Source of the DNA: Candidatus Melainabacteria bacterium 17Bon1m | Lineage (GTDB): Bacteria > Cyanobacteriota > Vampirovibrionia > Obscuribacterales > Obscuribacteraceae | Reading direction: 5' to 3' | NCBI GenBank assembly: GCA_032128875.1 | Contig: JAVLKG010000001.1 | Coordinates: 320,001-384,000, forward strand | Length of the DNA stretch: 64,000 nt | Shown: in pieces, positions 6,403-29,314 of the stretch | Layout: each line of letters opens with the position of its first letter | Position numbering within the stretch: the stretch's first letter is position 1 | Translations under genes and position numbers: made by a program | The notes under the pieces: generated by a model | What the model was told of the DNA's origin: nothing | Seen by the model: the letters and a program-made list of their open reading frames with translations, nothing else | Databases searched by the model: none

Positions 6403-6427
6403 GGAACTGTAAGGAATTTGGTTCGTC
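6403..6427 (+). promoter_or_regulatory. Putative ECF promoter GGAAC-N17-GTC
   Basis: Motif lies 31 bp upstream of the in-frame TTG at 6459. Confidence 0.6.
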
Positions 6428-6458
6428 CCCAGCATGTTCGAGGACTAGGGACCGAATC

Positions 6459-7532
6459 TTGCAAATAGCTCTTATCGAAGCTAACAAATCGACGGCGCGT
6501 GCCTTAAAGGCAGCGCTGGCCCGCAAGGCGTCTTTCCCTTGCCAGTTTCAGCTTGCTGCTTCCCTTAAGGAAGGGCTATCCGCGCTGAACGAGAAGCCCT
6601 GCGACGTCGTGCTGCTTGATTCTTCCTTGCCGGATAGTGACCCGGTTTCGGCTGTATCGAGAGTTCGCGCGGAATTTCCTTCCATTCCTATTCTTGTACT
6701 TAGCCCAAGTGAGGACACAAATTTTGTAAAGATGATGCACGAGTATGGTGCTCATCCATATGCGATCAAAGGCACCGTGGATGGTGTTCGTCTCGAAGAG
6801 GCTATCAATCAGGCGATCGCACAGGGCAATACGCTAAAAGAAGAGAATGTTCTTCTGAAGAAGAACAAGGAAACACAATCGGAGAACATCAAAACATTTG
6901 CCGCCTTGCTTCAAGGATTGAAGGGACCTTCCTTGATGACAGAACGGATTTTGCAAGTCGTCATCAGCGAACGTTTTGGCAGCCTGCCCTCCGGTATGGC
7001 AAGCATATTCTCGGAGTTGCGCAGTTACAACTGCAAGACTTTAAAGATGATCAATCAGCTTTTGGCCATCTACGAATACGAGATAGATATGCACACCATG
7101 GAGTTCGAACCTGTCAAACTCTCCGAGCTGGTTGAAGAGGCGCTTGCATTGATTGATACTAGCGCCCAAGCTCGCAATGTCACCATAAATTCGGAAGTGG
7201 AGAATGGCGACAAGATTGTTCAATTGAACAAGTCCGGAATGCTAATGGCGCTGCTAACCTTACTCGAAATGGCCATTACCAACACCGGTTTGGATTGTGC
7301 GCTCAGCTTCAAGACGGTTGTCGATGAAAATTCAGTTTCAATTACTGTAGACAATATAAACCCACTGGACAAGCGCAACGACGAAGGGAGTTTTGAGCGA
7401 CTTCCCCCCACATCAGAACCAGGATTGCACTTTTGCAAAGCGATTGCGGAAGCTCATTCGGGTGAGTTACTTTTCCGGTTGGAAGATACGCTCGATTGCA
7501 AATTCATCTTTCGTGTGCCGACAAGTCACTAG
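6459..7532 (+). CDS. Receiver domain plus degenerate histidine kinase (pseudokinase)
   Basis: REC (IALIE, DVVLLDSSLPD, YAIKG); H-box reads ALLQGLKGPS, N-box LLEMAITNT; TTG start at 6459 fits the REC N-terminus. Confidence 0.8.
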   Translation: MQIALIEANKSTARALKAALARKASFPCQFQLAASLKEGLSALNEKPCDVVLLDSSLPDSDPVSAVSRVRAEFPSIPILVLSPSEDTNFVKMMHEYGAHPYAIKGTVDGVRLEEAINQAIAQGNTLKEENVLLKKNKETQSENIKTFAALLQGLKGPSLMTERILQVVISERFGSLPSGMASIFSELRSYNCKTLKMINQLLAIYEYEIDMHTMEFEPVKLSELVEEALALIDTSAQARNVTINSEVENGDKIVQLNKSGMLMALLTLLEMAITNTGLDCALSFKTVVDENSVSITVDNINPLDKRNDEGSFERLPPTSEPGLHFCKAIAEAHSGELLFRLEDTLDCKFIFRVPTSH

Positions 7533-7579
7533 GGATTGCCGCTGGAGTCTGCGACTTTTGAATGATTGCCGCTTTCCCC

Positions 7580-10500
7580 TTAGGCTGTGTAATATTCGTT
7601 CAAGAAGCCTTTTGCAACGGTGAATTGATTTTCTAAGTCATCGAGGTACTTTTGCAAAGCTTGCTCGTCATTTTTTCTCGCGGCGTCCTCGATGGCGTGG
7701 CAAGTCGTCTCCATGTGCGCTATGCCTAGTACTGCACAGACTCCTCGTACTTTATGCGCTGTGTCAGCGATTTCTTGAAAATTCTTGTCTTGTAGCGATT
7801 TGCGGAAACTGACGATTTGCACAGGAGCGTCGTCGACGAACATTTTTATCAACTCTTTTCCGCCAGCTCCAAACTTTGCATTGATGTTTTCAATGTTGAC
7901 AGGCTTGGACAAATCGAGACTGACTTCGGATATGTCAAAGTCTGTCTGTTTCGACTGCCCCGACTTTGGCAAAGGCAGCCACTTATCTAGCATCTCGCGG
8001 AGAGTTTTTGGATCCACCGGTTTACTCAGATAATCATCCATCCCGACGGCGATACACCTGTCTTTATCTTCCCTCATAGCGTGAGCCGTCATCGCCACTA
8101 TTGGTACGTGTGCACCAGTGCTAAGCTCGCGCTTTCTGATGATCTTCGTAGCGAGCAAGCCGTCCATTTCCGGCATCTGGCAATCCATAAACACGAGAGA
8201 ATATGTCCGCATCGAGAGTGCATTGAGCGCTTCCTTTCCGTTGCTCGCAATGTCCACGGTAAATCCTAGCTCTTCTAAATAGAGCTGCGCTACTCTCTGA
8301 TTAATGGGATGATCTTCAACCACCAAAATCAATTCAGATCTTTGCTGTTCGATCTGATTTTCGAAAGACGAAGTGTTGATTTCTTTGTTGAAGATAGTGT
8401 CCTTACAAACCACGTCTGTCAAGCAATCAAGAAGCTGAGACTGTCTAACTGGTTTTGTTATAAACGCTTTGAAGCCCATGTCGATTGCTTGCGCGCCAAG
8501 ACCCGGTGTGTCAAAAGCCGTGAGTAGAACGAGGTCGGTTCTGCTGAGTATTTGATCATTGAGGATTTCCTTCGCCATCTCAATGCCGTTTTTCTCCGGC
8601 ATAACCAGGTCGACAATGGCAACTTTATAGGGGGTGTCATCTACAGATGCAGTGTGTAGTTGCTCCACCGCATCACTAGCACTCACTGCGGTGCCGCACT
8701 GCATTCCCCACGACTGAACATATTTTTGTAGAATCTCTCTTGCGTTAGGCTCATCGTCAATAATAAGCACTCGAACATTCTTCAGCGCCTCATGTGTGCC
8801 TGCCCATCCTTTCACGCCCCGAGCTTCAAGCGGCACTTTGAACCAAAACGTTGAGCCTTCCCCCTTTTTGCTTCGCACGCCTATTGCGCCACCCATAAGT
8901 TCAACTAGCGATTTGGAAATGCTAAGACCCAATCCAGTGCCACCAAATTTTCGGCTTATAGATCCGTCTGCCTGGACGAATGGCTGAAAGAGTTTTTGCT
9001 GTTCATCTTGCGTCAGGCCAATCCCGTAGTCGGTTACAGAAAATACAATGTTCATCATGTTTTCCTGCATTGAATCAATCTCTGCTTTCACGACGACTTC
9101 ACCGGATTCTGTGAATTTGATTGCATTCGATGCGAGATTGAGCAAAACCTGTCTTAGTCTTTCAGCGTCACCTCGTAAGAGTCGAGGTATAGCGACATCA
9201 ACATAACTTAGAAGCGACAGTCGTTTGGTTCTGGCTTGAACAGCGAGAATTTCACAGACACCTTCTACCATGCTCGCAATATCGAATTCGTGCATCTCCA
9301 ATTCAATACGACCAGCCTCGATTTTGCTGAAATCGAGAATGTCATTGATGACCGTTAACAATGCGTCGGCTGCCGACTGAATCGCGCGCGCATATTGGTT
9401 TTGAGATTCGTCGAGTTTTGTTCTGAGCAAAACGTTGCACATGCCTACGATGCCATTCATCGGTGTGCGGATTTCGTGGCTCATGTTCGCTACGAATTCG
9501 GATTTGAATTTTGACGCAGCTTGAGCCTGATCTCTTGCGAGAGATAATTCTTTGTTGAGAACTTCTAATTCCTGTTTGGATTGTAAAAGTCTCTCTTCAA
9601 CTACGTGGCGCTCTGTTATGTCGCGGGTAACTTTTGAAAATCCCTTCAGCTTACCGGCCGAGTCTTTGGTTGGTCTTATGACGACGTTTGCATAAAACTG
9701 ACTGCCATCCTTACGAACGCGCCAACCGAAGGTTTCGCAACTTCCCTGTTCGATTGCTTCCTTTAAAAGCTTACTCGGGAGCTTTCTATCAATATCTGCA
9801 GGTTGATAAAAACACGAAAAATGCTTACCGATAATTTCTTCTTGCGTATATCCTTGAAGGCGTTCGGCGCCATCATTCCATGTCACCACGTTTCCCTTGG
9901 TGTCGAGCATGATGATCGCGTAGTCGAGCACGCTCGATATCAGCGTTCGAAATTTTTCTTCGCTACTCCTTATAGCCTCTTCTGCTGCTTTGCGCTGTGC
10001 AGACTGATGCATGAGCAGATACATCATAACGACGACTGAAGCAGCTATTGAAACCGCGAGCGCAGCTGTGGAAAACGCTGTTTGGCTTGATGTTTTGGTG
10101 ACGGTAGTGTTTTGCTCGTTGAGCACTGCGTTCATGTGCGTGGTCATGACATTCAAATTCACTCGAATATCATCCATCAATTTCTTGCCGGAGTCGGTAT
10201 TCACAATTTTGCGAGCGGTAGCAGAGTCGCCGTGAGTCTGGAGTTCTGTTGTTTGTCTGAGCTCATCCAACTTCGAGTAAACAAGAGAGCCCAGAGCCTG
10301 GATCTGAGAGCGCATCTCTACATCGTTGCCGGCAAGACCGCTCAGTTCTCGTAAGTCCTTGATGATAGATTCTTGTGCTTCATCGTAGGGTTTTAGATAC
10401 GACGGTTTGCCGGTCAGCAGATACCCTCGCTGACCGGTTTCGGCATCTTTTAGATCGGACATCAACTTTTCTAGCTGAACAAGAATTTTCAGCGAGAGGT

Positions 10501-10639
10501 CTGTTTTTGCCGAACTTTCCGCATATTGTGTTGCGTTGTAAAACGAGATGAATGCTGTCGAAGCGAGCAAAAGCAGTGTAAAAACTAGCATGAACCAAAT
10601 GGCACTGCTTTTATCGGATTGATACGATGCTGTTTTCAT
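7580..10639 (-). CDS. Hybrid sensor kinase CHASE3-PAS-HisKA-HATPase-REC-REC-HPt
   Basis: DAETGQRGYLLTG (CHASE3), MSHEIRTPMNG, NAIKFT, GGTGLGL, two receivers, AHKVRG HPt; start 10639 or 10705. Confidence 0.95.
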   Translation of the reverse strand: MKTASYQSDKSSAIWFMLVFTLLLLASTAFISFYNATQYAESSAKTDLSLKILVQLEKLMSDLKDAETGQRGYLLTGKPSYLKPYDEAQESIIKDLRELSGLAGNDVEMRSQIQALGSLVYSKLDELRQTTELQTHGDSATARKIVNTDSGKKLMDDIRVNLNVMTTHMNAVLNEQNTTVTKTSSQTAFSTAALAVSIAASVVVMMYLLMHQSAQRKAAEEAIRSSEEKFRTLISSVLDYAIIMLDTKGNVVTWNDGAERLQGYTQEEIIGKHFSCFYQPADIDRKLPSKLLKEAIEQGSCETFGWRVRKDGSQFYANVVIRPTKDSAGKLKGFSKVTRDITERHVVEERLLQSKQELEVLNKELSLARDQAQAASKFKSEFVANMSHEIRTPMNGIVGMCNVLLRTKLDESQNQYARAIQSAADALLTVINDILDFSKIEAGRIELEMHEFDIASMVEGVCEILAVQARTKRLSLLSYVDVAIPRLLRGDAERLRQVLLNLASNAIKFTESGEVVVKAEIDSMQENMMNIVFSVTDYGIGLTQDEQQKLFQPFVQADGSISRKFGGTGLGLSISKSLVELMGGAIGVRSKKGEGSTFWFKVPLEARGVKGWAGTHEALKNVRVLIIDDEPNAREILQKYVQSWGMQCGTAVSASDAVEQLHTASVDDTPYKVAIVDLVMPEKNGIEMAKEILNDQILSRTDLVLLTAFDTPGLGAQAIDMGFKAFITKPVRQSQLLDCLTDVVCKDTIFNKEINTSSFENQIEQQRSELILVVEDHPINQRVAQLYLEELGFTVDIASNGKEALNALSMRTYSLVFMDCQMPEMDGLLATKIIRKRELSTGAHVPIVAMTAHAMREDKDRCIAVGMDDYLSKPVDPKTLREMLDKWLPLPKSGQSKQTDFDISEVSLDLSKPVNIENINAKFGAGGKELIKMFVDDAPVQIVSFRKSLQDKNFQEIADTAHKVRGVCAVLGIAHMETTCHAIEDAARKNDEQALQKYLDDLENQFTVAKGFLNEYYTA

Positions 10640-10942
10640 GGAAGCCTTTAGGGAGCCCACCTCAAGGCCATCGCACACAAGCCTGCGTGTGCGATTTATG
10701 TTCAAAGGAGGTGCCGGGACACCGGGATACCATACAGGGCGCTATCTAAATTGCTGCCCTTGTTAGGTTAAAGCTACAGAAAAAGAATTGAAACCGCAAG
10801 CCCTACACAAGACTAACATTTGCGTAATCGGCAAGTGCGAAATCTCGAAATCTTTGAACAACGGGATTTTTCGGATTCTAGTGTGTACTCAATTGGCTAC
10901 ATGAGTGATTTTGAAACTTTTTAATGATAAAACGCTGTGTCT

Positions 10943-11650
10943 TTAACCGGGCTCTAAAAGGCCATCTTTAAGGGCTTTCACTGCTACTTGCGTGCGGTCC
11001 GATACCATAAGCTTTTCCATGATATGGCGCATATGGGATTTGACTGTATGCAATGTGATGCATAACTTTTCAGCGATTTCTTGATTGGACAATCCATCAA
11101 CAAGCTGTTGAAGGACATCTAACTCGCGTTCTGTGAGGGCGAACAAATTGTCCTTTGTGCCAGGGGCGGACGTCGAAACCCGGCTTGATTGTTGCCCGGA
11201 GGACGCTCTCAAGACACGCTTTGCGATTGCCGGATCAAGCCATGATGCGCCCATATCGCACGAGCGTACGGCTGCCGCAAGCACCTCCGGCTGCGCGTCT
11301 TTCAAGCAGTACCCATCAGCACCGGCAGACAGCGCCGCAAAAATCGCATTGTCCTCATCACTCATCGTGAGGATGATCACTTTTATATCAGGAAAAGAAG
11401 CCTTGATTGACTTTGTTGCTTCAATGCCGTTGAGCACCGGCATATTGATATCCATCATTACAACATTCGGCTTGAGCTGTTGAGCAAGCTCTACAGCGTC
11501 CTTTCCGTTTTCGGCCTCTCCGACAACTTCGAAATCCGGACACCTATTCAAAACTATCTTCAAGCCGAGCCGTGTTATTCCTTGATCTTCGACAAGTAAC
11601 AAGGTAATTTTCGAGTTAGATGTAGGCGGGTTTTCCTCGCCGTTGTTCAT
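10943..11650 (-). CDS. NarL/LuxR-family response regulator
   Basis: VMMDINMP receiver; LTERELDVL...GLSNQEIAEKL...TVKSH HTH. Confidence 0.95.
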   Translation of the reverse strand: MNNGEENPPTSNSKITLLLVEDQGITRLGLKIVLNRCPDFEVVGEAENGKDAVELAQQLKPNVVMMDINMPVLNGIEATKSIKASFPDIKVIILTMSDEDNAIFAALSAGADGYCLKDAQPEVLAAAVRSCDMGASWLDPAIAKRVLRASSGQQSSRVSTSAPGTKDNLFALTERELDVLQQLVDGLSNQEIAEKLCITLHTVKSHMRHIMEKLMVSDRTQVAVKALKDGLLEPG

Positions 11651-11755
11651 CCTTCATTCTCCCTTCAGCCAACTACTTAGGGGGTTCCAATGAAGAATTC
11701 TACATGTAATTACCTCTGTTGCAAGCCGATAACGTAAGGCATTTTTACGGCAGTT

Positions 11756-13990
11756 TTAGCATGCGCTTTTGCTGAACAGAGGAATCTCAAACCAAAACGT
11801 ACTACCCAAGCCAACTTTGCTCTGCACGCCGATGTTCCCACCGTGTTGTTCTACGAGAGCTTTGCTTACTGCCAGGCCAAGACCGGTGCCTTCACTTCGT
11901 CTCGTATCGGACGAATCGAGTTGCCGGAATTTCTGAAATAGATTTGGCAACTCCTCATCGGGAATTCCGGGTCCGTTGTCCACGATGCTGAAGCGAATTT
12001 GTTCGGCTTCAACGATTCCGTTGACTTTGACTTCTGATCCGTTCTTCGAGAACTTGACGGCATTCGAAATCAAATTGGCGAGTACCTGCGTGCAGCGATC
12101 TTTGTCTACGTTTATAGTTACATGCGGAGGTTCTTGTTCTACGCTTAGTTTGACACCTCGTTCGTCCGCCATTCCTTTGAGGCTGTTGACGGCTTCTGCT
12201 AAAAGTAAGTCGGCTGCAATTGGCTGCAATTGCAAATCAAATTTGCCGGCTTCGATTTTCTTCAGATCAAGTATGTCGTTGATCAATCTAATCAGTCTGT
12301 CTGAGCTTTCGCGCCCTATTCTGATCAGATCGATGCATTTCTGCGAACCATATTTTACGATGCCACCTTCGATCAGGCCCAGCGCTCCGCGAATTGAGGT
12401 GAGAGGTGTTCTCAATTCGTGCGAGACAATTGAATAAAACTCGGAAACACGTTTCTCAGCAGCTTTTCTCTCGCTGATATCGCGATCAATTTGCGATATG
12501 CCGACAATCTCACCATGTTTGTAGATCGGCGCCAAACTCAAACAGACTTCAACCGCCTGTTCGCCGCGCAAACGAGTTGAATCAAGTGACTCGATGCACC
12601 TGCCTTCTTTGACCTTGTCGACAAGTTCGCAAAGTTCTTGCAGCTTGTCCGGCGGCACCAACATTTTGACGCTCTTTCCGATGGCGTCTTTCGCACTGTA
12701 CCCGTAGAGTTTTTCTGCCCCGCGATTCCATCCAGTGATCATGAGATCCATGTTCAAACCATAAATCGCATCCGTGGATGACTCGACGATTTTGGCAAGC
12801 TGTTCGTTAATCTCCTCCGAGCTGCGTCGCAACATGAACTGACCAACCTGTCTTCCAATTGCCACCAATAGCTCGAAGAGTTCCATGGATGGCTGTTTTG
12901 ATTCATTGGTGTAAAACTCGATGACCGCCCTTATCCTTCCGTCAATCACAACGGGGAAGCCAACACCTGATTTCAAACCAGCTTCAATAGCGTATGTTTT
13001 TCTTGTCAGTTTTTCTGCTTCGATATCGTTGATCCATTTTATAGACCCCGCGGATCTTACCAGTCCAGGCAAGTCAGAATCAGACAAAATGTTCAAAGAA
13101 AGAGAGGCGCGTTCAAACTCTTCGCATGTTTCATTCCTGCGCCAAAAGCCGGCGCAGCGCATGTCTGTTTCAAATTCTTCTTGAACCCAAATCGCGCTGC
13201 ACATTACAGTTTCATCTCCAAACACGCAGTTGGAAATGCATTCAAGCAATGGGCTGTAACTGTCTTCGAGTGTCGCTGATTCCGCTAGAATACGAGACAC
13301 TTCGTACTGAGCGGCTACTTGTTTTTCGCTCTGTCTCAATTCCTTTGTTCGTTGCTCTACAAGCAACTCGACGTTTTCTTTGCTCGCCTCAACCTCGGCT
13401 TGCCTGGTAGCAATCGACTGCATTTCCATAATGCCCTGACGGCAACTGATAATCAAAAAGACGTCTTCGAAAACGACCCAGAAAATATGTTCGACAGTTC
13501 TCCAGGGGCTGGCGTAGGCAATGCCATATACCGAGAGAGGAAAAAAGGCACCACGCAAAATGTGATCGACTGCGGCAATAGCAGAAGCCGTGATTAAAAC
13601 ACGCCAATCCCGATAGAATGCCAGAAATGCTAAAGAGCCGAATATCAAAAAGTGAGATTCGATTCGTCCTCCAGTCAAATGTATAAGCAGTGCCGCGAGC
13701 ACCATTTGCGCCACCGCGATCATATGCCTTGTAATGGCAAACCCTGGACGAGTCCTCTGCAAAATCAATGGAAAACCAATTGCGAGTCCGCCGATAAAAA
13801 TCGCGGTCCAGATATGCGGGTGGATTGAACTTGATGTCCCAGCCCAAGTGTGCGGCGAGACAATTGCAGCAACTCCGATAAGGCAGATCCATTCAACTAA
13901 GAAAAGTTTGGCGAAAAGACGGTCGGTCCTTTTGAACAACTGAGTTTTCTGCTCTTGCAACAACTCGTCTATTCTTTGTTGATTGATCAT
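11756..13990 (-). CDS. Membrane sensor histidine kinase (RedC-like membrane domain, GAF, PAS)
   Basis: Multi-TM N-terminus with GGRIESHFLIFGSLAFLAFYRDW; GAF; PAS; VSHELRTPL; GTGLGL; ATG overlaps the upstream stop. Confidence 0.92.
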   Translation of the reverse strand: MINQQRIDELLQEQKTQLFKRTDRLFAKLFLVEWICLIGVAAIVSPHTWAGTSSSIHPHIWTAIFIGGLAIGFPLILQRTRPGFAITRHMIAVAQMVLAALLIHLTGGRIESHFLIFGSLAFLAFYRDWRVLITASAIAAVDHILRGAFFPLSVYGIAYASPWRTVEHIFWVVFEDVFLIISCRQGIMEMQSIATRQAEVEASKENVELLVEQRTKELRQSEKQVAAQYEVSRILAESATLEDSYSPLLECISNCVFGDETVMCSAIWVQEEFETDMRCAGFWRRNETCEEFERASLSLNILSDSDLPGLVRSAGSIKWINDIEAEKLTRKTYAIEAGLKSGVGFPVVIDGRIRAVIEFYTNESKQPSMELFELLVAIGRQVGQFMLRRSSEEINEQLAKIVESSTDAIYGLNMDLMITGWNRGAEKLYGYSAKDAIGKSVKMLVPPDKLQELCELVDKVKEGRCIESLDSTRLRGEQAVEVCLSLAPIYKHGEIVGISQIDRDISERKAAEKRVSEFYSIVSHELRTPLTSIRGALGLIEGGIVKYGSQKCIDLIRIGRESSDRLIRLINDILDLKKIEAGKFDLQLQPIAADLLLAEAVNSLKGMADERGVKLSVEQEPPHVTINVDKDRCTQVLANLISNAVKFSKNGSEVKVNGIVEAEQIRFSIVDNGPGIPDEELPNLFQKFRQLDSSDTRRSEGTGLGLAVSKALVEQHGGNIGVQSKVGLGSTFWFEIPLFSKSAC

Positions 13991-14601
13991 AACTGAGCCT
14001 TCTTTGGATCTTCGATGGGACATCCATAAACCGCACCGGATGCAGTTGATGTTCCTTCTCTAAGCGCCTTCACCGCCAAGTCTAAGTTTTTGCATTCACC
14101 TATATGCCCGCGTCCTTCCGTAAGACCGCCGGAGTATTTCAAAATCCCTTTTCGATCAAAAATATAAGTTTGCCCTGAGGTTATTGCCCCGAATTTCCTC
14201 GCTTCTGCTCCATCAATGTCCGACACAAGCTGCGCGCCAGGAACTTCAGCAGCAAGATTCCATATGTCGGTTTTCTCCCACCCCTTCGGAAATGTCGTTG
14301 GAGCGTAGACAAGAAAAATGCACTGTAATGAATTGTCGTTTGTTGTCAGTGTTGCGACTTGTTGTAAGCTCGCACGAGAACACGGGCATTTTGGATGCAA
14401 GAGCATGACCAACGTGTTGTTTGTGGTGCTGCGAGTAATATTGCTATTTTCCGGCCAGTTGATGCCAGACGTTGCCGTCAACCCCGGGATGCTGTCGAAT
14501 TTGAATACTAAACAAACGCCTACGGTTAGTGTGAATAACCAACTGAATGCGCCGATGATAACCCAATTCCTCCTCACCGATGACCAAAACCTGCTCAGCA
14601 T
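13987..14601 (-). CDS. RedB-like exported thioredoxin-fold protein
   Basis: N-terminal TM, HPKCPCSRAS, FGAITSG, YSGGLT.RGH, VYGCPI. Confidence 0.8.
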   Translation of the reverse strand: MLSRFWSSVRRNWVIIGAFSWLFTLTVGVCLVFKFDSIPGLTATSGINWPENSNITRSTTNNTLVMLLHPKCPCSRASLQQVATLTTNDNSLQCIFLVYAPTTFPKGWEKTDIWNLAAEVPGAQLVSDIDGAEARKFGAITSGQTYIFDRKGILKYSGGLTEGRGHIGECKNLDLAVKALREGTSTASGAVYGCPIEDPKKAQL

Positions 14602-15005: not shown

Positions 15006-15151
15006 GTGTTCAACCCTTATCTGACACCTGGCTTTGCCGGTGTCTACGTGCCCTCAAATTAATCCTGACAGGTTTTATATGAGTAAGCGTCAGTCGGGGG
15101 TTTGAACCTCTATCACCCGATTTAGTGATTAAGAAGAATGAGGTGCTGGAG

Positions 15152-15729: not shown

Positions 15730-15754
15730 GGAACTGTCGCCTCGATAGCAGGTC
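15730..15754 (+). promoter_or_regulatory. Putative ECF promoter GGAAC-N17-GTC
   Basis: Exact motif in an intergenic region, pointing into 15760-16012. Confidence 0.5.
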
Positions 15755-16030: not shown

Positions 16031-17206
16031 TTAAGCAGCCATTTTGGGATGCAGAACGAATTTGGTGCATTCTTTTTTCTCTGCGAACAGCTTGTAAGCA
16101 TCGGCAGCTTGTTCGAGACTTACGTCGTGCGAAATGACAAAACGCGGGTCAATTTCGTTGTTCATTATTCTTTCGAGCAATGGTTTCATATAACGCTGTA
16201 CGTGCGTTTGACCCATCTTCAAAGTCAGACCTTTACCGAAGGCGATGCCCAGAGGGAATCGATCGACAAATCCAAGATAAACACCTGGAATGGAGATGGT
16301 TCCGCCATTGCGGCAGAGTCGGATCATTTCGCGCAGCGCATGCGACCGGTCAAACTCAATTCGCATAAATTGCATTACGCCGTCAAACACAGCATCCAAA
16401 GTATTTCCGTGTGCTTCCATGCCCACTGCATCAATACAAGAGTGTGGTCCCCGGCCTTGAGTTAGTGCAGCAAGGCGCTCCTGAACATCTTCTTTTTCAT
16501 AATTGATCGGAATTGCACCGCTCGTTTCTGCCATCGCAAGGCGTTCGGCAAAACGGTCGATTGCAATCACTTGCCCTGCTCCAAGCATGAATGCACTTTT
16601 GATCGCGAACTGTCCGACTGGTCCGCATCCCCAGACCGCAACCGTGTCACCAGGCAAGATATTGCAGTTTTCTGCCGCCATAAAGCCGGTTGGAAATATG
16701 TCTGACAAAAATAGAGCCTGATGCTCTGTAATGTGTTCGGGCAATACAAGCGCGCCCACATCTATCATCGGAACTCGAACATACTCTGCCTGTCCACCTG
16801 GGTAGCCACCATACATGTGTGAATAACCGAACAAGCCCGCCGCCGGATAAGCCGTCAAAGCCGTTAGTTTGTCATTGTCCGGGTTGGTGGTTTCACAAAG
16901 TGCGTATTTTTGCTCTGTGCACATGACGCATTCGCCGCATGCAATCACAAATGGTATTACCACTCGGTCGCCCACTTTCACTCGTTTTACGTCTTTACCC
17001 ACTGCCACTACCTGCCCTGCGAACTCGTGGCCTAAAATGTCGCCGGGTTTCATCATGGGTGTGTAGCCATCATATAAGTGCAGGTCAGAGCCGCATATTG
17101 CAGTGCAGGTGATTTCGAGAATAGCGTCTGTGGGCTGGATTATTTCCGGATCTGGTACCGTGTCGACTCGAACATCTTTGATGCCATGCCATGTTAGTGC
17201 TTTCAT
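16031..17206 (-). CDS. Zn-dependent alcohol/formaldehyde dehydrogenase (MDR family)
   Basis: ICGSDLH, GHEFAG, C-x2-C-x2-C-x7-C, GCGPVG; GGAGG SD before MKALTWHG. Confidence 0.93.
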
Positions 17207-18463: not shown

Positions 18464-18488
18464 GGAACTTTGTCGTTCTCGGCCAGTC
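18464..18488 (+). promoter_or_regulatory. Putative ECF promoter GGAAC-N17-GTC
   Basis: Between the sigma gene and the PAS kinase. Confidence 0.6.
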
Positions 18489-20653: not shown

Positions 20654-20731
20654 GCTGAGAAGTTTCTTTTGCTGATAATGCACATTGGTCTGGGTTGAGC
20701 ACTGACTATTCCTGAGAATGCCACGCCAGAC

Positions 20732-21136: not shown

Positions 21137-21283
21137 CGACTCAACTCTTAATTTCAGCGGGCATCGTTTTTAGTAAGTTTCTAAGTCCCGGTAGAAGAAG
21201 ATAGAGTTGCACTTTCGGCGTTTTGTTCCCGCCCCGACATTACAAATATCTAGGTCTTGAGTGATCGTACGTTTGCCCTTGAG

Positions 21284-23449: not shown

Positions 23450-23474
23450 TTACGGATTTCCTATGGACGTCAAA

Positions 23475-23711
23475 TTATTCGAGGATTTTGCCGTGACTTT
23501 CCTCACCAGAGCTATCCTTAGTTTTTGCACTCGATTCTCTGTTGGGTTTCTTTGCGGTGCTGCTGCGCGTTTCTTCGCTGCTATACCCGGACGCGTTGAC
23601 AATGATGCCGGCCGTGCAACCTTCATTGCATTCAAAGTCGTAGAAGATAAGCAGGCGTCCATCTTCTTTCTGGATGCTTCTCTTGATTAGCTTGTGTTTT
23701 TTTGACTTCAT
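23475..23711 (-). CDS. Small protein upstream of galT with KEDGRLLIFY motif
   Basis: ATG with AAAGAG upstream; co-oriented, ends 25 bp before galT. Confidence 0.6.
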   Translation of the reverse strand: MKSKKHKLIKRSIQKEDGRLLIFYDFECNEGCTAGIIVNASGYSSEETRSSTAKKPNRESSAKTKDSSGEESHGKILE

Positions 23712-23897
23712 TCTCTTTACAAGTGTTGCGGGAATTCAATCATACCCCAGCTGATCTATTCTCTCATTTGGGCTTCACCCAAATAGACTTCAAAGTTTTT
23801 GTCTTTATCGAGAATTCGATCATAACGTTGCCACTTCTTCTAAAATCAAAAACCTTGAAGGCACCATATGCAGTGTCTAAGGCGAATGTGAGTCTAT

Positions 23898-23982
23898 AGT
23901 GAAGAAAAGAAGTGAAGAAAGAAGTGATGAAAGAAGTGATGAAAGAAGTGATGAAAGAAGTGATGAAAGAAGTGAAGAAAGA
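23898..23982. repeat. 12-bp purine-rich tandem repeat AGTGA(T/A)GAAAGA, 7 copies
   Basis: Read directly; first copy is 13 bp. Confidence 0.95.
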
Positions 23983-24232
23983 GCGTTTACTCTGCCGTTA
24001 TTCGAAACTGACGCAGGCACACGCTTTATTGCGATCCAAATGAAACAAAAGCTTTGATGTCAGTATAGACGAATTTAAGACGCGAATTGGAACATCTCGC
24101 TAGCAGTGAATCTCTACTAGATTGGGGATTGCAGAACTTCCGGGCACTCGCCACCATTCGAGGTATCACCCAATCTAGGTTTTCAGTTATCCAGAGTTTG
24201 CGCCATACTGGAGATGGAGGATTAGGAAGTCT

Positions 24233-24424
24233 ATGAACAGGAAGAAAACAAAATATTGGTTTGAAAAAATCGATGCAACTTCACCTTTGCCGAATTTTTA
24301 TCCATACAGCGAAGACGCTGCGGGCGCATCTGACGAGCATTTATCAGAAAGCGTACATTCGATAAACGGAGATAACATACTTACTCTGAATAGTTGGAAT
24401 CCAGACGACCAGCTGGCTGTATAG
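24233..24424 (+). CDS. Small hypothetical protein (63 aa)
   Basis: AGGAAG SD, ATG start, followed by an intrinsic terminator. Confidence 0.5.
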   Translation: MNRKKTKYWFEKIDATSPLPNFYPYSEDAAGASDEHLSESVHSINGDNILTLNSWNPDDQLAV

Positions 24425-24464
24425 TTAATTTCATAGGTTTATCCCTACCCCAGGGAGAAAAGGA

Positions 24465-24489
24465 GGAGTGCATAGCGCTCCTTTTTTTT
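24465..24489 (+). terminator. Rho-independent terminator
   Basis: GGAGTGC-ATA-GCGCTCC followed by T8. Confidence 0.8.
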
Positions 24490-24526
24490 GCACTATTTAT
24501 TCAGTGCGCAGTATTGATTTGCCGGA

Positions 24527-24551
24527 GGAACTTTGGATAACTTGTGCGGTC
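24527..24551 (+). promoter_or_regulatory. Putative ECF promoter GGAAC-N17-GTC
   Basis: Exact motif directly after a terminator, with no ORF downstream on this strand. Confidence 0.6.
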
Positions 24552-24557
24552 ATACCA

Positions 24558-24665
24558 TTCGGAAAAAACGAAATATCTAAAACACTGTGAGAAGCACAGA
24601 TTTGCGTTTCGATCGACGCCGAAACGCAGAAAAGTGAAGGGCCGCTTAGAGCAAGCGGCTCTTTG
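24558..24665 (+). ncRNA. Candidate three-hairpin small RNA
   Basis: Promoter motif; hairpins CTGTG/CACAG, TGCGTTTCG/CGAAACGCA, GGGCCGCTT/AAGCGGCTC+TTT. Confidence 0.5.
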
Positions 24666-24675
24666 CTGCTTTAAG

Positions 24676-25278
24676 TCATGCAGTTAATTCGTCTTCTCGC
24701 AAATCTTGCGCAAGTCGCTCGGCATTTGCAAGTTGCCATCTCACCGATGATGTTGACATGTCTCCTGTCAAAACAATACGCGGTGCTGGAGAATCCTTTA
24801 TCAGGCAAGGAGTGGACGATATCCTCTCTTTCTGTGCGAGTTGCGGACTCTTCAATACGTCGATTACTGACAGCGAATATTTATTCTTGTCACCGCCAAA
24901 TAAGCGTGCGACGTTGGTCAGCAGTTGTTCGTCAGGAGTGCCGCAAACAAAAAGCAATAGGTTGACCTTTTCACCGCTCGAAAAAACGTTGTCTCTGATT
25001 GAAACGCTGACGTCTTTTCCGAGCTTCTCCAACCAGACAATAAGCATGTCGATGCTGAAGCGGTCTACCCTACCTTGAACGACATCTGATATTCGCGGTT
25101 GTCCAACACCCAGGACTTCTGCCGCTTGGCCTTGCGTCCAGCCCTTTTCACGGATCAATTCGGCAATAGCTGCCATTAATTCCGCGCGCAGCACTAAATT
25201 GGACGCAGCGTAATCATCTTGCGAAGAGTGATTTTTTTCGCGAGATCGATTTCCCTTCATTGCGTTACCCGATTTCAC
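24676..25278 (-). CDS. XRE-family HTH regulator fused to a KaiB/SasA-like domain
   Basis: WTQGQAAEVLGVGQPRISDVVQGRVDRFSIDML (HTH); LLLFV...VIDVLKSPQLAQKERISSTPCLIKDSPAPRIVLTGDMS (KaiB-like). Confidence 0.88.
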   Translation of the reverse strand: MKSGNAMKGNRSREKNHSSQDDYAASNLVLRAELMAAIAELIREKGWTQGQAAEVLGVGQPRISDVVQGRVDRFSIDMLIVWLEKLGKDVSVSIRDNVFSSGEKVNLLLFVCGTPDEQLLTNVARLFGGDKNKYSLSVIDVLKSPQLAQKERISSTPCLIKDSPAPRIVLTGDMSTSSVRWQLANAERLAQDLREDELTA

Positions 25279-25396
25279 ACTTCATATACTTAATTATATA
25301 TGTGCATCCTCTGTGGGCTATCCCTCGTCTGGTATATAAAAGATTAAATAGCTAGATGAGCAAGCAGTGGACAACTTGCTTGTATCTGACTGACCG

Positions 25397-25414
25397 TATA
25401 GAATTAATTCTATA
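25397..25414. promoter_or_regulatory. Perfect 18-bp palindrome TATAGAATTAATTCTATA, candidate operator
   Basis: In the divergent promoter region between the XRE-KaiB gene and a pseudo-receiver. Confidence 0.45.
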
Positions 25415-25453
25415 AAGTGATAATTTGATTGGCATATCTATTTGGGTGACTAT

Positions 25454-25882
25454 ATGGATAAGCAACCAAGTTTGATGAATCGCATATTGCTGGCCCACGA
25501 CCCGCAGAAAATCGGTTTTTTGCTCGATTCGCTGACGGGTTTTGAACTTGTCCCGGCTGCGACGGTCAAGGAAGCCGAAAGGCTCATCACTGAGAATGGA
25601 ATCAACCTGTTTATTATTGGAATTCATTTTGATGATTCCCGCGCTCTCCAGCTAATAACGGACATTCGTCTCGACGAAAAGCATAAGACGACACCCATCG
25701 TGGTTGTTCGTCTCTCTCAGTCAGAGCACACAGAGATGCTTAGAATGACGATGGACACTCTGATTAAGCTTCACATCGTCGACGAGTTTATCGAGATTGA
25801 AAATCCAGGACAGAATCAAAAGAAACTTTTTCGCAAACTCGTAGAAAAGATACTTAATCAGGCAGAGGCTATAAGCCAATAA
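25454..25882 (+). CDS. Atypical receiver-like protein (no phospho-Asp)
   Basis: RILLAHD, ATVKEA, NLFIIGIHFDDSRAL, TPIVVV. Confidence 0.75.
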   Translation: MDKQPSLMNRILLAHDPQKIGFLLDSLTGFELVPAATVKEAERLITENGINLFIIGIHFDDSRALQLITDIRLDEKHKTTPIVVVRLSQSEHTEMLRMTMDTLIKLHIVDEFIEIENPGQNQKKLFRKLVEKILNQAEAISQ

Positions 25883-26026
25883 TGGGCTGCGCAGTTTAGA
25901 TTAGCTCCAATGTTGTCTGCCGCGCAGCAGGAAGCGAAAAACACAAGAGAGACGTTTTTAAGCGTCTCTCCTCTTTGGTTGCTCACTACTTAGTTAGCTC
26001 GGGGCGTGCTGGTTTGGCTGGCGCCG

Positions 26027-26413
26027 TCACTCATTTTGCCCCTTTTTTTGACCTTCGTTTTCACCCTGGCTTTCTTTGGTTAAGCATTTGCCGAGATACA
26101 TCTTCAGTGCTTCTACGTGCTCACGGTCTGAAGTTCGGATCTTATCGAAAAGGTCTCTCAGCTCAGCACAGGGTTGTGCGTCCAATATGTATTTGTCATA
26201 TGCCTGAAGTGCTTTGGACTTTTCGTTAAGCACCATAACTACGTCGAATTGAAGGTCGGATAGCGGGAAATATCCAGTTCCTTTATCCGCTCTTACTCCT
26301 TCCTTTCCCTGACCATTGCTTTTATTTTGCTGTCCTTGATTTTGTTGATTCTGAGTTTCTTGGTTTTGTTTTCCTTGATCTTGTGCCTTGTTTTCTTTCA
26401 TAGAACTAGCCAT
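26027..26413 (-). CDS. Gln/Asn-rich small ferritin-like stress protein
   Basis: LNEKSKALQAYDKYILDAQ...LFDKIRTSDREHVEALK; GAGG SD before ATG 26413. Confidence 0.75.
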   Translation of the reverse strand: MASSMKENKAQDQGKQNQETQNQQNQGQQNKSNGQGKEGVRADKGTGYFPLSDLQFDVVMVLNEKSKALQAYDKYILDAQPCAELRDLFDKIRTSDREHVEALKMYLGKCLTKESQGENEGQKKGQNE

Positions 26414-26791
26414 CTCGCTTACCTCATAAAATCGATTCGCATTATGAGGAGAGTCAGTATTTGACTGATTGTTCCTCATGTATCCAACAGTGTTGAGCCT
26501 TTTGATAGCTTGTTACGAATCAAAATCCTTGTGTCTTGATCCGGTCATAGTGTGGCGACCATTGCGTTGAATGAGTGTGCCACAGGTCGCATCAGCACGT
26601 CCCCATTTGCAGTGTGCTCTTCTAAGTCCTGTTCCGGACTTATGCTTTCTACATCTAATCGTTGGACTTTTGTTTGTTTCTAAGTGAATAGCACCAAGTT
26701 GTGGAACAATAATGTTAGTCTCGAAAGCCGATGGCCCGTGCGCCTTCTGTCTAGGCGGCAAAATAGAAATGTGTGGTGGAGGAAACTATAA

Positions 26792-27163
26792 GTGAAACTG
26801 AATCCAACAAAATCTGCGGAATTATTTGATGTGCTAGAGGCAATAGGCACCGCTAGTAACTTGGACTCGGAAATTGAAAAACAACAAAAATTGGTCGCCT
26901 CTATGTCGGAATCATCGTTTTCATCAGGCGAGCGTGGTGATGCTTTGTTCTACCTTGCGCGTTTGTATTTTCAAAAGCAATCATTTCAGCAGGCAAAGAA
27001 TTGTGCTGTAGAAGCAGTAGGTTTAAGACGTTTGTTTTACGGAAAGAAGGCGAAAGAATTTCTTGATGCTGTAACTCTGGCGCGATTAATTAACGATGAA
27101 ATTGAGAAAACTGAGCCACCGAAAAGGCGGCGAAGAGGCCGCGTTAAGTCTCCTAGCATTTGA
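26792..27163 (+). CDS. Small TPR-like protein
   Basis: ALFYLARLYFQKQSFQQAKNCAVEAV; GGAGG SD. Confidence 0.65.
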   Translation: MKLNPTKSAELFDVLEAIGTASNLDSEIEKQQKLVASMSESSFSSGERGDALFYLARLYFQKQSFQQAKNCAVEAVGLRRLFYGKKAKEFLDAVTLARLINDEIEKTEPPKRRRRGRVKSPSI

Positions 27164-27181
27164 GTTTTCTTAAAGTAGAAC

Positions 27182-27973
27182 TCAAGTAATTTTTTGCGCT
27201 GCCTCGTTGGACTCCGCGCCAGAGTTGTTGTCTCTGTTCGCGGAGTCATGCGGAGGGGAGAATATGCTCGGCTCTTTTCCAAACAACTTTTCGAAATTTT
27301 CCGCGATGGCATGATAACAGCCGCAACTTGCGGCTTCTAATCCTTCACGATCTTTTACCGTGACAATGCCTCTGACATATGAGATTAGCCCCGCTTTTTG
27401 CAAGGTCATTGCCGCAACGTTCACCGCCGGTCTGCGAACTCCAAGCATTTGTCCCAGGAACTCCTGCGTTAATGGAAAATTCCTTCTATCCATTCTGTCG
27501 TGGCAAAATATCAACCAGCGTGCACATCTTGAGTCAACATTGTGCGAACGGTTGCAAGCCGCGTTTTGAGCAGTTTGATTGAAGAGCGATTGAGCATACT
27601 TGTTCATTAACAGCCCAAATGTCGGAAGGTCTTTCATAAACTGTTTGAAGTCTACGGCGGGCATTCTTAGAGTCGGACCCGGTATCTGGCAAAAACACAT
27701 CCCTTCCATTGTCTCTGCGCCGAATATTATTGGCACACCCACGACACCTTCCTTCCCTACTGTTGCAACTTCAATGAATTCGTTTTCTTCAACGTATGCA
27801 ACTATCGATTCAACGCCACTTTCCGGAAAGTACACAAAATCCAATGGTTGTCCCGATTCGAAAATAGGATACTTTGTATTGAGGCTCAGGTATTCCAAAT
27901 GTGGTAGCACCGCTTCTAATTCTTCTGGTGGCAGTCTACGTAGAATGTGATTTTCAATTTTTTCAATAACCAT
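27182..27973 (-). CDS. Crp/Fnr-family transcriptional regulator
   Basis: VYFPESG, VGKEGVVG, RCARWL, LTQEFLGQMLGVRRPAV. Confidence 0.93.
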   Translation of the reverse strand: MVIEKIENHILRRLPPEELEAVLPHLEYLSLNTKYPIFESGQPLDFVYFPESGVESIVAYVEENEFIEVATVGKEGVVGVPIIFGAETMEGMCFCQIPGPTLRMPAVDFKQFMKDLPTFGLLMNKYAQSLFNQTAQNAACNRSHNVDSRCARWLIFCHDRMDRRNFPLTQEFLGQMLGVRRPAVNVAAMTLQKAGLISYVRGIVTVKDREGLEAASCGCYHAIAENFEKLFGKEPSIFSPPHDSANRDNNSGAESNEAAQKIT

Positions 27974-28015
27974 CAGTATCCCTCGGGCTTATGTTTGGTA
28001 GCGGTCATATAGGAA

Positions 28016-28040
28016 GACTGCGAAATGATCAGACGGTTTC
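28016..28040 (-). promoter_or_regulatory. Putative ECF promoter variant GAAAC-N17-GTC
   Basis: Upstream of the Crp gene. Confidence 0.5.
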
Positions 28041-28076
28041 TGAATGTCACATGTGTTTACTTCCAAGTAGAAAGAC

Positions 28077-28100
28077 AAAAAGACGTCACAGGACGTCTTT
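28077..28100. terminator. Bidirectional terminator
   Basis: AAAAGACGTC-ACAG-GACGTCTTTT. Confidence 0.75.
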
Positions 28101-28122
28101 TCATCGAGATATCTAAGTAGCT

Positions 28123-28428
28123 CTACGCCGCTTTCTTTGCCTTTGCTTTTCCACCTTTCCTTCCAGCTTCTACCTTCTGCTGGTGAGATGATGATTTTGC
28201 TTTCCTACCGGTCTTTGGCTTGGTGGATGCTTTTTTTGAACTTGTCTTTTTGGCAGTGGTTTTTTTCTGCCCCGAACCTCCGGCTTTTTTGCCGCCACCA
28301 TCTTGCTTATTGACCGTCGCCCACGCCCTACTTTTCGCTTCTTTCTCGCTTACACCCTTCTCCTCGTAACTTTCTTCTATGTGTTTTGCTTTTCGTTCTT
28401 GTTTGTCCGTATATTTACTTCCTGGCAT
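28123..28428 (-). CDS. Basic general-stress protein with KGG motif
   Basis: YTDKQERKAKHIEESY...RAWATVNKQDGGG; EAGRKGG; GGAGG SD. Confidence 0.85.
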   Translation of the reverse strand: MPGSKYTDKQERKAKHIEESYEEKGVSEKEAKSRAWATVNKQDGGGKKAGGSGQKKTTAKKTSSKKASTKPKTGRKAKSSSHQQKVEAGRKGGKAKAKKAA

Positions 28429-28455
28429 ATTCAAACCTCCATGATCAGATTTGAA

Positions 28456-28480
28456 GACCGTTGCTCAGTTTGTCGGTTCC
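28456..28480 (-). promoter_or_regulatory. Putative ECF promoter GGAAC-N17-GTC
   Basis: Upstream of the KGG protein gene. Confidence 0.65.
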
Positions 28481-28566
28481 AATGTGAATTGGCCATATCT
28501 CGCGCCCTTAAGTTGTTGGGTATGCACCCGCGTAAGGGCAGATTTACTTGTAATCGTGCTTGTTGC

Positions 28567-28690
28567 AAAAATAGTAGGCGACTGGGTTAGCCCCAGTCGC
28601 CTTGAAGAACCGGAAACTTCTTATCAGTAGTTTCCCCGTTCATAGTTGTGGCTTTCATAGCCATTTTCTTTCTCTATTCTCGTATCGATA
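28567..28690 (-). ncRNA. Candidate three-hairpin small RNA (contains a 25-aa ORF, 28587-28664)
   Basis: Promoter at 28698-28722; hairpins TGGCT/AGCCA, GGAAACT/AGTTTCC, AGGCGACTGGG/CCCAGTCGCCT followed by a T-rich tail. Confidence 0.5.
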
Positions 28691-28697
28691 ATATGAT

Positions 28698-28722
28698 GAC
28701 GTTAGAAGCATCCTTCAGTTCC
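28698..28722 (-). promoter_or_regulatory. Putative ECF promoter GGAAC-N17-GTC
   Basis: Exact motif just downstream of the hemerythrin stop. Confidence 0.6.
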
Positions 28723-28746
28723 AAAAAACGTGCAAATTCTTAGCTG

Positions 28747-29259
28747 CTAACTAGCTTTTCTTTGTCGGATGGCGCTACGTCCTTTGCTCGTGTTCATCAT
28801 TCGCATTTTTTTCTTCTTGACGGTTTCAGCCATCATTTCTAGATCTTCGTCCGAATCCTTCAACTTCGGAAGCAGCTCGTTCTCTTCTTCTTTGACGTGA
28901 TGCTCGATCAACTCTTTGAGTACTGTGACTTTAGCCTTGCAGTTTTCTTCAGAACCATCCATTCTCGACATTTCTCGAAGAATGCCTTTGACTACATGAT
29001 GCTCTTCATAAGCTTCTTTAGCTCCGTCTTCTTCTTCCACCATTAATGGAGGATAAACAATTTGCTCCTCAAGAGTGGCATGAATTGTTAATTCAGTGAT
29101 TATTTTCTCCATTAAGCTTTTGCGCTGACGGCTAGTACGTGCGCCCTCGAATTCAGCAAAAAGTGCTTCGACTTTTCTGTGATCTGCCTTGAGCATAGAG
29201 ATTATTTCGGGTTCGCCCATCATTGCACTGACGGCATCGCCAACACTCTTTACGTTCAT
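28747..29259 (-). CDS. Hemerythrin/HHE cation-binding protein
   Basis: LKADH, HATLEEQIVYP, EEH, HHVKEEENELLP; AAGGAG SD. Confidence 0.9.
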   Translation of the reverse strand: MNVKSVGDAVSAMMGEPEIISMLKADHRKVEALFAEFEGARTSRQRKSLMEKIITELTIHATLEEQIVYPPLMVEEEDGAKEAYEEHHVVKGILREMSRMDGSEENCKAKVTVLKELIEHHVKEEENELLPKLKDSDEDLEMMAETVKKKKMRMMNTSKGRSAIRQRKAS

Positions 29260-29289
29260 ATGATTTCTCCTTTCAGTGTCTTTAGAAAT

Positions 29290-29314
29290 GACCTGAATAG
29301 GACCTTTTAGTTCC
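29290..29314 (-). promoter_or_regulatory. Putative ECF promoter GGAAC-N17-GTC
   Basis: Upstream of the hemerythrin gene. Confidence 0.65.

Follow-up and report, generated by a model that had tools for sequence, protein, structure and literature searches.

We analysed a 64,000-nucleotide stretch of the genome of Candidatus Melainabacteria bacterium 17Bon1m (the window), in which a bipartite motif, GGAAC-N17-GTC (N17, 17 unspecified nucleotides), recurs around the gene for a sigma factor of the extracytoplasmic function (ECF) type at 17755-18438 (the window sigma). The window corresponds to C1:320001-384000 of a 7.55 Mb assembly in 35 contigs, coded G000. An earlier sequence-only reading had taken the motif as the mark of a local stress regulon driven by the window sigma. 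Our results make it likely that the motif is the -35/-10 core of promoters of the sigma-E-like ECF type, that it is read by a clade of five paralogous sigma factors to which the window sigma belongs, and that the sites together form a stress and dormancy regulon that extends over the whole genome.

A bipartite motif with a strict spacer

The motif is set apart from its own spacer variants throughout the genome. We found 292 matches with a spacer of 17, compared with 128-180 for each of 14 other spacers in the range 10 to 24, and the longer form GGAACT-N16-GTC gave 113 matches against 21-37 at other spacers. When the matches were placed on a gene map made with a crude open reading frame (ORF) caller of our own (5,859 genes covering 85% of the DNA), the intergenic ones numbered 157 for N17 and 56 for N18, against 12-30 for seven other spacers; a second count gave 159 and 57, against 12-31. 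Matches within 300 nucleotides (nt) of a co-oriented start showed the same pattern, with 105 for N17, 42 for N18 and 6-10 for other spacers. The sites also have a direction: where a start lay within 150 nt, 91 N17 sites pointed toward it and 36 away, and 33 N18 sites pointed toward it and 10 away, whereas six control spacers summed to 28 toward and 28 away. Distances from site to start peaked at 20-60 nt. The motif is therefore enriched in intergenic DNA and faces gene starts. Within coding regions there were about 135 N17 matches, the same as for other spacers, so intragenic copies are neither avoided nor selected. Subtracting about 20 background matches per spacer leaves a predicted regulon of about 135 N17 and about 35 N18 intergenic sites.

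Outside the eight fixed bases the sequence logo was nearly flat, with T/C after GTC and C before it. At N17 sites T was preferred after GGAAC, followed by a weak TT, and G never occurred in that position. This preference separates the two spacings, with T after GGAAC at 70 of 157 N17 sites but at only 7 of 56 N18 sites (Fisher p = 9e-6). No single-substitution variant of the eight bases was enriched at spacer 17 in intergenic DNA genome-wide; GAAAC-N17-GTC, for example, occurred 54 times against 33-55 at ten other spacers, and GGAAC-N17-GTT 25 times against 19-40. With no one-mismatch variant enriched, we dropped a degenerate, wider motif, and with it a site ahead of a Crp-like gene. The eight-base code is effectively all-or-none. 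The consensus reported for E. coli sigma-E has GGAACTTTT at -35 and (T/C)GGTCAAAA at -10, with a spacing of 16 nt between GGAACTT and TCAAA strongly preferred within a range of 15-19 and a further 5-6 nt to the start of transcription (PMC1312014). Counted from GGAAC to GTC, this consensus has exactly N17, which explains the preference for T after GGAAC. The assignment to ECF-type promoters was thus borne out by a motif that is bipartite, holds strictly to spacers of 17 or 18, faces genes and is identical to the sigma-E core.

In the window itself we counted nine exact matches to GGAAC-N17-GTC, compared with 1.36 expected (standard deviation 1.19, maximum 5; none of 100 dinucleotide-preserving shuffles reached nine), and eight of them lie in the 23 kb surrounding the window sigma gene. 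The sites and the genes next to them are as follows, with minus-strand sites named in the text by their 5' end.

6403..6427, plus strand: exact GGAAC-N17-GTC, 31 nt ahead of the TTG start at 6459
6459..7532, plus strand: receiver-domain protein (Pfam Response_reg, 2.1e-10), called a pseudokinase in the sequence-only reading
15730..15754, plus strand: exact site between two minus-strand genes, followed by a 79-codon ORF with no family match
16770..16794, plus strand: exact site, antisense within the ADH-like gene 16031-17260
17755-18438, plus strand: sigma-E-like ECF sigma factor made up of regions 2 and 4 (the window sigma), a candidate reader of the motif
18464..18488, plus strand: exact site, 28 nt past the sigma stop codon and 27 nt ahead of the ATG at 18516
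18516-20066 and 20063-20653, plus strand: PAS histidine kinase and overlapping response regulator, a two-gene unit behind the 18464 site
24527..24551, plus strand: exact site with no ORF behind it, followed by small hairpins and convergent with an HTH-KaiB gene
28016..28040, minus strand: one-mismatch site GAAAC-N17-GTC, 42 nt ahead of the ATG at 27973 of the Crp-like gene 27182-27973
28456..28480, minus strand: exact site, 27 nt ahead of the ATG at 28428 of a 101-residue lysine/glycine-rich protein (the earlier KGG protein)
28567..28722, minus strand: exact site at 28698-28722, 25-codon ORF from 28664 and strong terminator-like hairpin at 28602-28576
29290..29314, minus strand: exact site, 30 nt ahead of the ATG at 29259 of the hemerythrin gene 28747-29259
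35830..35854, minus strand: exact intergenic site outside the range of the sequence-only reading, about 186 nt upstream of two tRNA genes

The seven exact sites listed earlier (6403+, 15730+, 18464+, 24527+, 28480-, 28722- and 29314-) are all present, and those at 16770(+) and 35830-35854(-) come in addition. Given the starts at 6459 and 29259, the seven are all intergenic as claimed, and the proposed distance of 25-45 bp to the start fits as well: from the C of GTC to the starts at 6459, 18516, 28428 and 29259 we measured 31, 27, 27 and 30 nt. GGAGG-type boxes lie between site and start at 28428 and 29259. The chance rate given for the motif, once per 33 kb, is arithmetically correct; the empirical background, taken from the 128-180 matches per 7.55 Mb at other spacers, is one per 42-59 kb. 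The GAAAC variant at 28040(-) is where it was said to be, but it belongs to a form without genome-wide enrichment and is unsupported as a member of the set. One-mismatch sites in the window were no commoner at N17 (34) than at N16 (36) or N18 (42).

Not every exact site leads to a gene. The site at 16770 is most likely a background match, because about 135 of the 292 genome matches fall in coding DNA, equal to other spacers. No convincing gene lies behind the sites at 15730, 24527 and 28722, and an Rfam scan of the whole window found two tRNAs only, so that the units behind these three sites match no described RNA family. The 15730 site may be a promoter for a small or antisense RNA, or may be idle. 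The 28567..28722 segment has the makings of a short transcription unit of its own, about 120 nt long, with the end of its 25-codon ORF falling inside the hairpin. The 24527 site comes just after a conserved 63-codon ORF without a family (24233-24424, plus strand) and looks like a promoter stranded by rearrangement or one that now makes a small RNA. That ORF is 54% identical to one in another species (locus L005, 1322-1564, minus strand). An N17 site follows it in both, facing an ADH gene in L005 and with nothing coding behind it in the window. The convergent gene (24676-25278, minus strand) encodes a fusion of HTH_37/HTH_3 and KaiB domains, a KaiB-type protein in a non-photosynthetic lineage. 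The C-terminal half of the receiver protein at 6459..7532 has weak matches to histidine-kinase cores (NCBIfam KdpD/CreC/ZraS, 24-27 bits, far under the cut-offs).

The window cluster is one of several. The 213 intergenic N17 and N18 sites formed seven clusters of at least six per 25 kb, compared with 0.16 expected from 500 random-placement simulations, the other six lying at C2:15 kb, C1:1050 kb, C1:272 kb, C4:341 kb, C12:116 kb and C1:563 kb. The description of the regulon as local therefore did not hold, since the window contains one of seven clusters within a genome-wide set of sites.

Conservation and gene content of the probable regulon

To compare species we used a spacer of 20 as the control in place of the reversed pattern, which differs in composition, CAAGG-type words being commoner. 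Each of the 12 other genomes of the genus had more N17 than N20 matches, at ratios of 1.40-2.57 (for example, 211 versus 82 and 250 versus 103). The ratio was 0.74-1.58 in six other genera of the family; beyond the family, elsewhere in the order and class, there were too few matches (10-36) to judge. Individual promoters gave a sharper picture. Hemerythrin genes had an exact N17 site at 17 of 17 loci in nine genomes of the genus (four in this genome and 13 in eight others), 17-66 nt ahead of the approximate start. All eight Dps loci of the genus likewise had one, 37-71 nt ahead of the ATG, and all eight had a second N17 site 515-620 nt upstream, ahead of the neighbouring gene. At the hemerythrin and Dps sites the 17 spacer bases vary between species and the eight motif bases are unchanged throughout. 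These putative orthologous promoters are the strongest evidence of conservation. At the sigma homologues of Gastranaerophilales (L006-L029) no adjoining N17 site was found.

We assembled a target list of 147 genes, each with its start no more than 350 nt downstream of an intergenic site, and annotated it with Pfam at E <= 1e-5; 59 of the 147 have no Pfam family. Among the others, a large group points to protection and dormancy: three hemerythrins, two BON proteins, Dps/ferritin, a tandem Usp protein, a transglycosylase-associated protein (GlsB-type), two YMGG Gly-zipper proteins, ChaB, trehalose-phosphate synthase OtsA (GT20), a glycogen-debranching-type enzyme, a GSP26-like protein of the pyridoxamine-oxidase fold, YetF, TspO, DoxX, two SRPBCC proteins, three patatins and two PEMT-type methyltransferases. 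DNA repair and channel proteins are represented by LigD, PolX and MscL, and signalling by a free-standing KaiB, PP2C phosphatases, three GGDEF proteins, several histidine kinases and two group-2 sigma factors. Both of these RpoD-like sigma genes have an exact motif upstream (C4:237471, N18; C6:208055, N17), a pattern suggesting that the ECF clade acts on group-2 sigma factors in a sigma cascade. The N18 subset, with an M23 peptidase, a DPBB lytic transglycosylase, MurG, an outer-membrane efflux protein, HlyD and TPR proteins, looks more envelope-related than the N17 subset. Both BON genes of the genome have the motif, as do four of the six hemerythrin genes above the cut-off. Judged by predicted gene content, the set looks like a general stress response with a dormancy flavour, in agreement with what the sequence-only reading had proposed.

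Two observations concern families on this list. The free-standing KaiB gene (C2:170736-171050) lies behind an N17 site. About 20 of the 31 Usp-domain matches of the genome are packed into one 45 kb stretch (C1:421000-466000), none of them in the target list; this stretch is a separate stress island under other control.

The sigma factors that may read the motif

The window sigma fits the definition of an ECF (group IV) sigma factor, which has only regions 2 and 4, lacks regions 3 and 1.1 and is about 200 residues long: Pfam finds Sigma70_r2 (3e-15), Sigma70_r4_2 (8e-15) and Sigma70_ECF (1.7e-5), with no region 3. It passed the NCBIfam model TIGR02937 (95.5 bits, cut-off 42.9) and fell well under the RpoE equivalog TIGR02939 (114.2 bits, cut-off 236.15), so it is sigma-E-like without being an RpoE orthologue. 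The nearest solved chain is E. coli sigma-E itself (1or7, E = 4.5e-23), and the recognition helices are close, GTVKSRISRAR in the window sigma and GTVRSRIFRAR in sigma-E, with serine and arginine at two DNA-reading positions. In the reported structure of sigma-E with -35 DNA, R176 reads the first G, and serine or threonine at 172 tracks G or A at the next base (PMC1540707). Like sigma-E, the window sigma has serine at the S172 equivalent in the 1or7 alignment, which pairs with the second G. Its relatives are in metagenome-assembled genomes of Melainabacteria/Obscuribacterales (64-69% identity) and, more distantly, in Gastranaerophilales (35-42%), which fits a genome of the Obscuribacteraceae type.

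The window sigma is one of a family. The genome has 19 sigma-70 region-2 matches, which include seven long group-1/2-type frames. We identified four paralogs of the window sigma, on contigs C9 (113076-113714, 68% identity), C3 (923117-923746, 65%), C2 (46%) and C10 (218804-219418, 41%), and the -35 recognition helix GTVKSRI(S/A)RAR is common to all five. Two types can be told apart. The C2 paralog (C2:406961-407542) is a typical ECF unit: a zf-HC2 protein is encoded downstream, joined by RseA_N in its G014 and G017 counterparts, and an exact N18 site (GGAACA) lies 29 nt ahead of its start. In the five species checked, this anti-sigma-linked type has an N18 site at 29-50 nt in three (G000, G004 and G014) and none in G001 and G017. 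It is the only clade member across most genera of the family, at 45-50% identity. From this layout the C2 paralog is probably a classical self-activating pair of sigma and anti-sigma that uses the N18 form. The window sigma has neither an adjacent anti-sigma gene nor a self-promoter; its neighbours are the ADH-like gene, a 133-codon ORF without a family and the PAS kinase. Pfam found no adjacent anti-sigma for the window, C9 and C3 sigma types, and the C9 copy is followed by an ORF, at least 1,131 codons long, that had no Pfam match. Three small proteins of the island (26792-27163, 24233-24424 and 13987-14601) were considered as an anti-sigma for the window sigma and rejected, as they have no anti-sigma features. 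A DNA-level search for orthologous sigma flanks in the genus matched the coding part alone, at 66-71%, the same as between paralogs, so upstream regions could not be aligned for footprinting.

Two further observations belong to these genes. An exact GGAAC-N17-GTC (GGAACAGTT.CG.AC.....ATCGTC) recurs inside anti-sigma-linked sigma genes across genera and even orders (L136 at about 1605, minus strand; L137 at 1713, plus; L179 at 2907, plus; L180 at 2747, minus; also in G022, G023, G027, G028 and G029). It overlaps the codons of the region-4 peptide EQFRT(S/A)IV, about 160-190 nt ahead of the anti-sigma start, and could be a coding by-product or an internal promoter of the anti-sigma gene. Upstream of the window sigma, 7580-15697 (minus strand) is a dense signalling block with a CHASE3-PAS hybrid kinase (two receivers, Hpt), a NarL-type regulator, a GAF-PAS kinase, a 204-residue membrane protein without a family and two more receiver proteins, several of which have homologues in L005.

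Sigma factors of the type without an adjacent anti-sigma repeatedly adjoin N17 sites and stress genes. An N17 site lies directly behind such a sigma gene in the window, 28 nt past the stop codon and ahead of the PAS kinase, and also in G036 and in G041, in the latter followed by Dps; in L002/L129 it lies 196 nt behind the sigma gene and is followed by catalase. In another species, locus L005 is a homologous but rearranged version of the island; it contains a sigma gene, catalase, hemerythrin, three receiver proteins, ADH and the 63-codon ORF, together with six N17 sites. A hemerythrin gene behind an N17 site adjoins the sigma gene in G005 and G010, and in G039 and G041 a clade sigma stands immediately upstream of Dps. 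The G039 cluster (L182, G039:C6:102500-107000) comprises genes for a YflT-like protein, a clade sigma, Dps and Ku, with 18 nt between sigma and Dps. Across genomes, the N17 excess is strong in the genus whose sigmas without an anti-sigma reach 60-69% identity in 1-3 copies, and other genera have only 45-50% matches. G014, with one match, of the anti-sigma-linked type only, has no N17 excess (95 versus 104). No sigma of the type without an anti-sigma was found in G004 and G006 (assemblies 90% and 79% complete), which have the lowest N17/N20 ratios of the genus (1.40 and 1.43) and no hemerythrin or Dps match. The genomes are few and kin, and this tracking of sigma type with N17 excess is suggestive only.

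A number of results weigh against our interpretation. On the side of the sites, background should account for about 20 of the 157 N17 and for about 20 of the 56 N18 sites, and the crude gene map, on which the intergenic/coding split depends, loses small genes and over-extends some starts. Housekeeping genes among the targets (metK, carA, murG and nadE), and also nadC, may be such background. One Usp gene has the motif against about 31 Usp domains in the genome, and no exact motif occurs in the 277 nt upstream of the window catalase, so the regulon does not comprise all stress genes. Of 14 Dps loci in other genera of the family, five have the exact motif, as N17 or N18, within 130 nt, which indicates that the system extends past the genus but not everywhere. 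The sigma-Dps-Ku cluster of G039 has no exact motif anywhere in its 4.5 kb; it is either an operon under another promoter code, or the specificity has diverged in that genus. On the side of the sigma factors, the shared helix means that sequence cannot assign the motif forms to individual paralogs. No exact motif occurs in the 700 nt upstream of the window sigma, and only one of 13 loci of its type with upstream sequence has one; without a self-site, the self-activation that usually ties an ECF sigma to its motif is missing. G004 and G006 keep some N17 excess (127 versus 91 and 159 versus 111). Finally, four public runs labelled as transcriptomic RNA-Seq, all from one sample of a plankton metagenome, contain the region, and over 14001-31000 of the window they gave contigs of 25-180 kb at an even depth of 17-33, which is DNA-like; the label may be wrong, or the libraries heavy in DNA.

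These points bear on which paralog reads which sites. The most serious rival to our assignment is that the anti-sigma-linked C2 paralog reads both the N17 and the N18 form, leaving the window sigma and its two close paralogs with other or redundant roles. It alone has a conserved exact motif at its own promoter (three of the five species) and it alone represents the clade across most of the family; G004 and G006, where it is the only type found, retain a modest N17 excess, and the spacer range of 15 to 19 nt reported for E. coli sigma-E covers both forms (PMC1312014). However, in each of the three species the site at its own promoter takes the N18 GGAACA form, whereas T is favoured in the N17 set; G014 has this type alone and shows no excess; the large excess tracks the genus with expanded sigmas without an anti-sigma; and N17 sites stand directly beside sigma genes of that type at four loci. 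We consider this rival unlikely. Far less probable still is the original proposal of a few neighbouring genes with the window sigma as sole driver: the eight exact sites in 23 kb around its gene and the homologous island in another species, with a sigma gene and N17 sites, speak for it, but the 157 intergenic N17 sites are spread over many contigs, the genome has six more clusters of the same density, hallmark targets, Dps among them, are found on different contigs, and two paralogs at 65-68% identity have the same DNA-reading helix. That the motif instead serves to bind a transcription factor, such as one of the response regulators or LuxR/Crp-type regulators in which the locus is dense, is hardly credible for two short invariant blocks with an unconserved spacer fixed at 17, less often 18, that face genes strongly at a fixed short distance from start codons, are identical to the sigma-E -35/-10 core and, unlike usual regulator sites, form neither a palindrome nor a direct repeat.

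We therefore return to the clade of five paralogs as the likely readers of a sigma-E-type promoter. In the holoenzyme, region 4 of the sigma factor would read GGAAC and region 2 would read GTC. By analogy with E. coli sigma-E, transcription would start about 8-9 nt past the C of GTC, which would make the leaders short, about 15-50 nt. Most likely the readers belong to one clade, the five paralogous sigmas with a common helix, among which labour may be divided. The anti-sigma-bound C2 paralog would answer envelope or redox signals and amplify itself through the N18 GGAACA form, with envelope-like targets. The three paralogs without an adjacent anti-sigma, the window sigma included, would most likely drive the N17 stress set with its GGAACT bias; they would be made from other promoters and controlled after translation. 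The stress set would be switched on together with two group-2 sigma factors, as a cascade, and with signalling proteins, as feedback, of which the PAS kinase and regulator pair behind the window sigma may be part. As for the window sigma, the part of the earlier claim that stands is that clade sigmas adjoin such promoters and stress genes in several species and genera; its role as the driver does not follow, as it has no upstream motif, shares its helix with four paralogs and sees the conserved self-site on another of them. It may well be one reader of the N17 set, although we give this somewhat less than even credence. A broader model is possible but more tentative: in Obscuribacteraceae, general stress and dormancy would be handled by a lineage-specific expansion of non-autoregulated sigma-E-like ECF factors without an adjacent anti-sigma, acting through an all-or-none code at about 135 promoters, with activity set by self-induced two-component proteins such as the PAS kinase and regulator.

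Significance and comparison with known systems

Knowledge of Melainabacteria (Vampirovibrionia) is largely derived from metagenomes, and a literature search for their sigma factors or regulons found none among the titles and opening lines of abstracts. A strict motif that can be scanned for provides a map of well over a hundred co-regulated genes, including the 59 of 147 without a family, and predicts which unknown genes serve stress survival or dormancy in the lineage. Its compact, highly specific pairs of promoter and sigma factor could also be used in heterologous hosts. If the broader model were true, a non-photosynthetic sister lineage of cyanobacteria would have a further independent solution to general stress, beside sigma-S, sigma-B and EcfG.

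Three known systems invite comparison. The nearest by lineage is cyanobacterial SigG. In Synechocystis 7338, sequence clusters are reported to predict a SigG promoter with GGAAC at -35 and GTC at -10 (PMC8155712), and one sigG promoter is described as resembling RpoE promoters, with sigG co-transcribed with its downstream partner sapG (PMC2758279). Both cases concern an ECF sigma factor, SigG being that of the sister lineage, and the C2 paralog with its anti-sigma has the same layout as SigG and SapG, which does not imply orthology. In contrast, the window sigma has no SapG-like neighbour, and the literature searched held no SigG stress regulon of comparable size.

The general stress response of alphaproteobacteria is built on EcfG together with NepR and PhyR, with promoters of the form GGAAC-N16/17-CGTT. 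Here, too, an ECF sigma factor with a GGAAC -35 element would serve a large stress regulon (Dps, catalase-type, BON and KGG-type small proteins), there are sigma paralogs, and histidine kinases and receiver proteins cluster with the sigma gene. The differences are that the -10 element here is GTC, with GGAAC-N17-GTT not enriched, that the sigma genes of the type without an anti-sigma are not autoregulated, and that the phylum is a different one. Pfam found no PhyR-like protein (a sigma-like domain with a receiver) or NepR near the sigma gene among the ORFs of the window, NepR being too small for this search to exclude it.

E. coli sigma-E is the closest match in promoter code. The core and its spacing are the same, with the preference for T after GGAAC, and one paralog here has an anti-sigma with RseA_N and zf-HC2 and a promoter of its own. 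Unlike RpoE, the window sigma scores under the RpoE cut-off and lacks both an adjacent anti-sigma and a self-promoter. The A-rich tail of the -10 element (TCAAA) is not conserved here, where a weak T/C follows GTC, whereas all eight bases of the core are essentially invariant. The gene sets differ as well, the N17 set being one of cytoplasmic stress and dormancy rather than of outer-membrane biogenesis. An ECF regulon with a sigma-E-type promoter is of a known kind, and this one is ordinary in that respect, though large and well delimited. New here are the lineage, a regulon of this size that is so cleanly delimited, the placing of stress and dormancy genes behind a sigma-E code, and the non-autoregulated paralogs without an adjacent anti-sigma. 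The sigma-E promoter code appears to have been kept far beyond Proteobacteria, while the set of genes behind it has changed.

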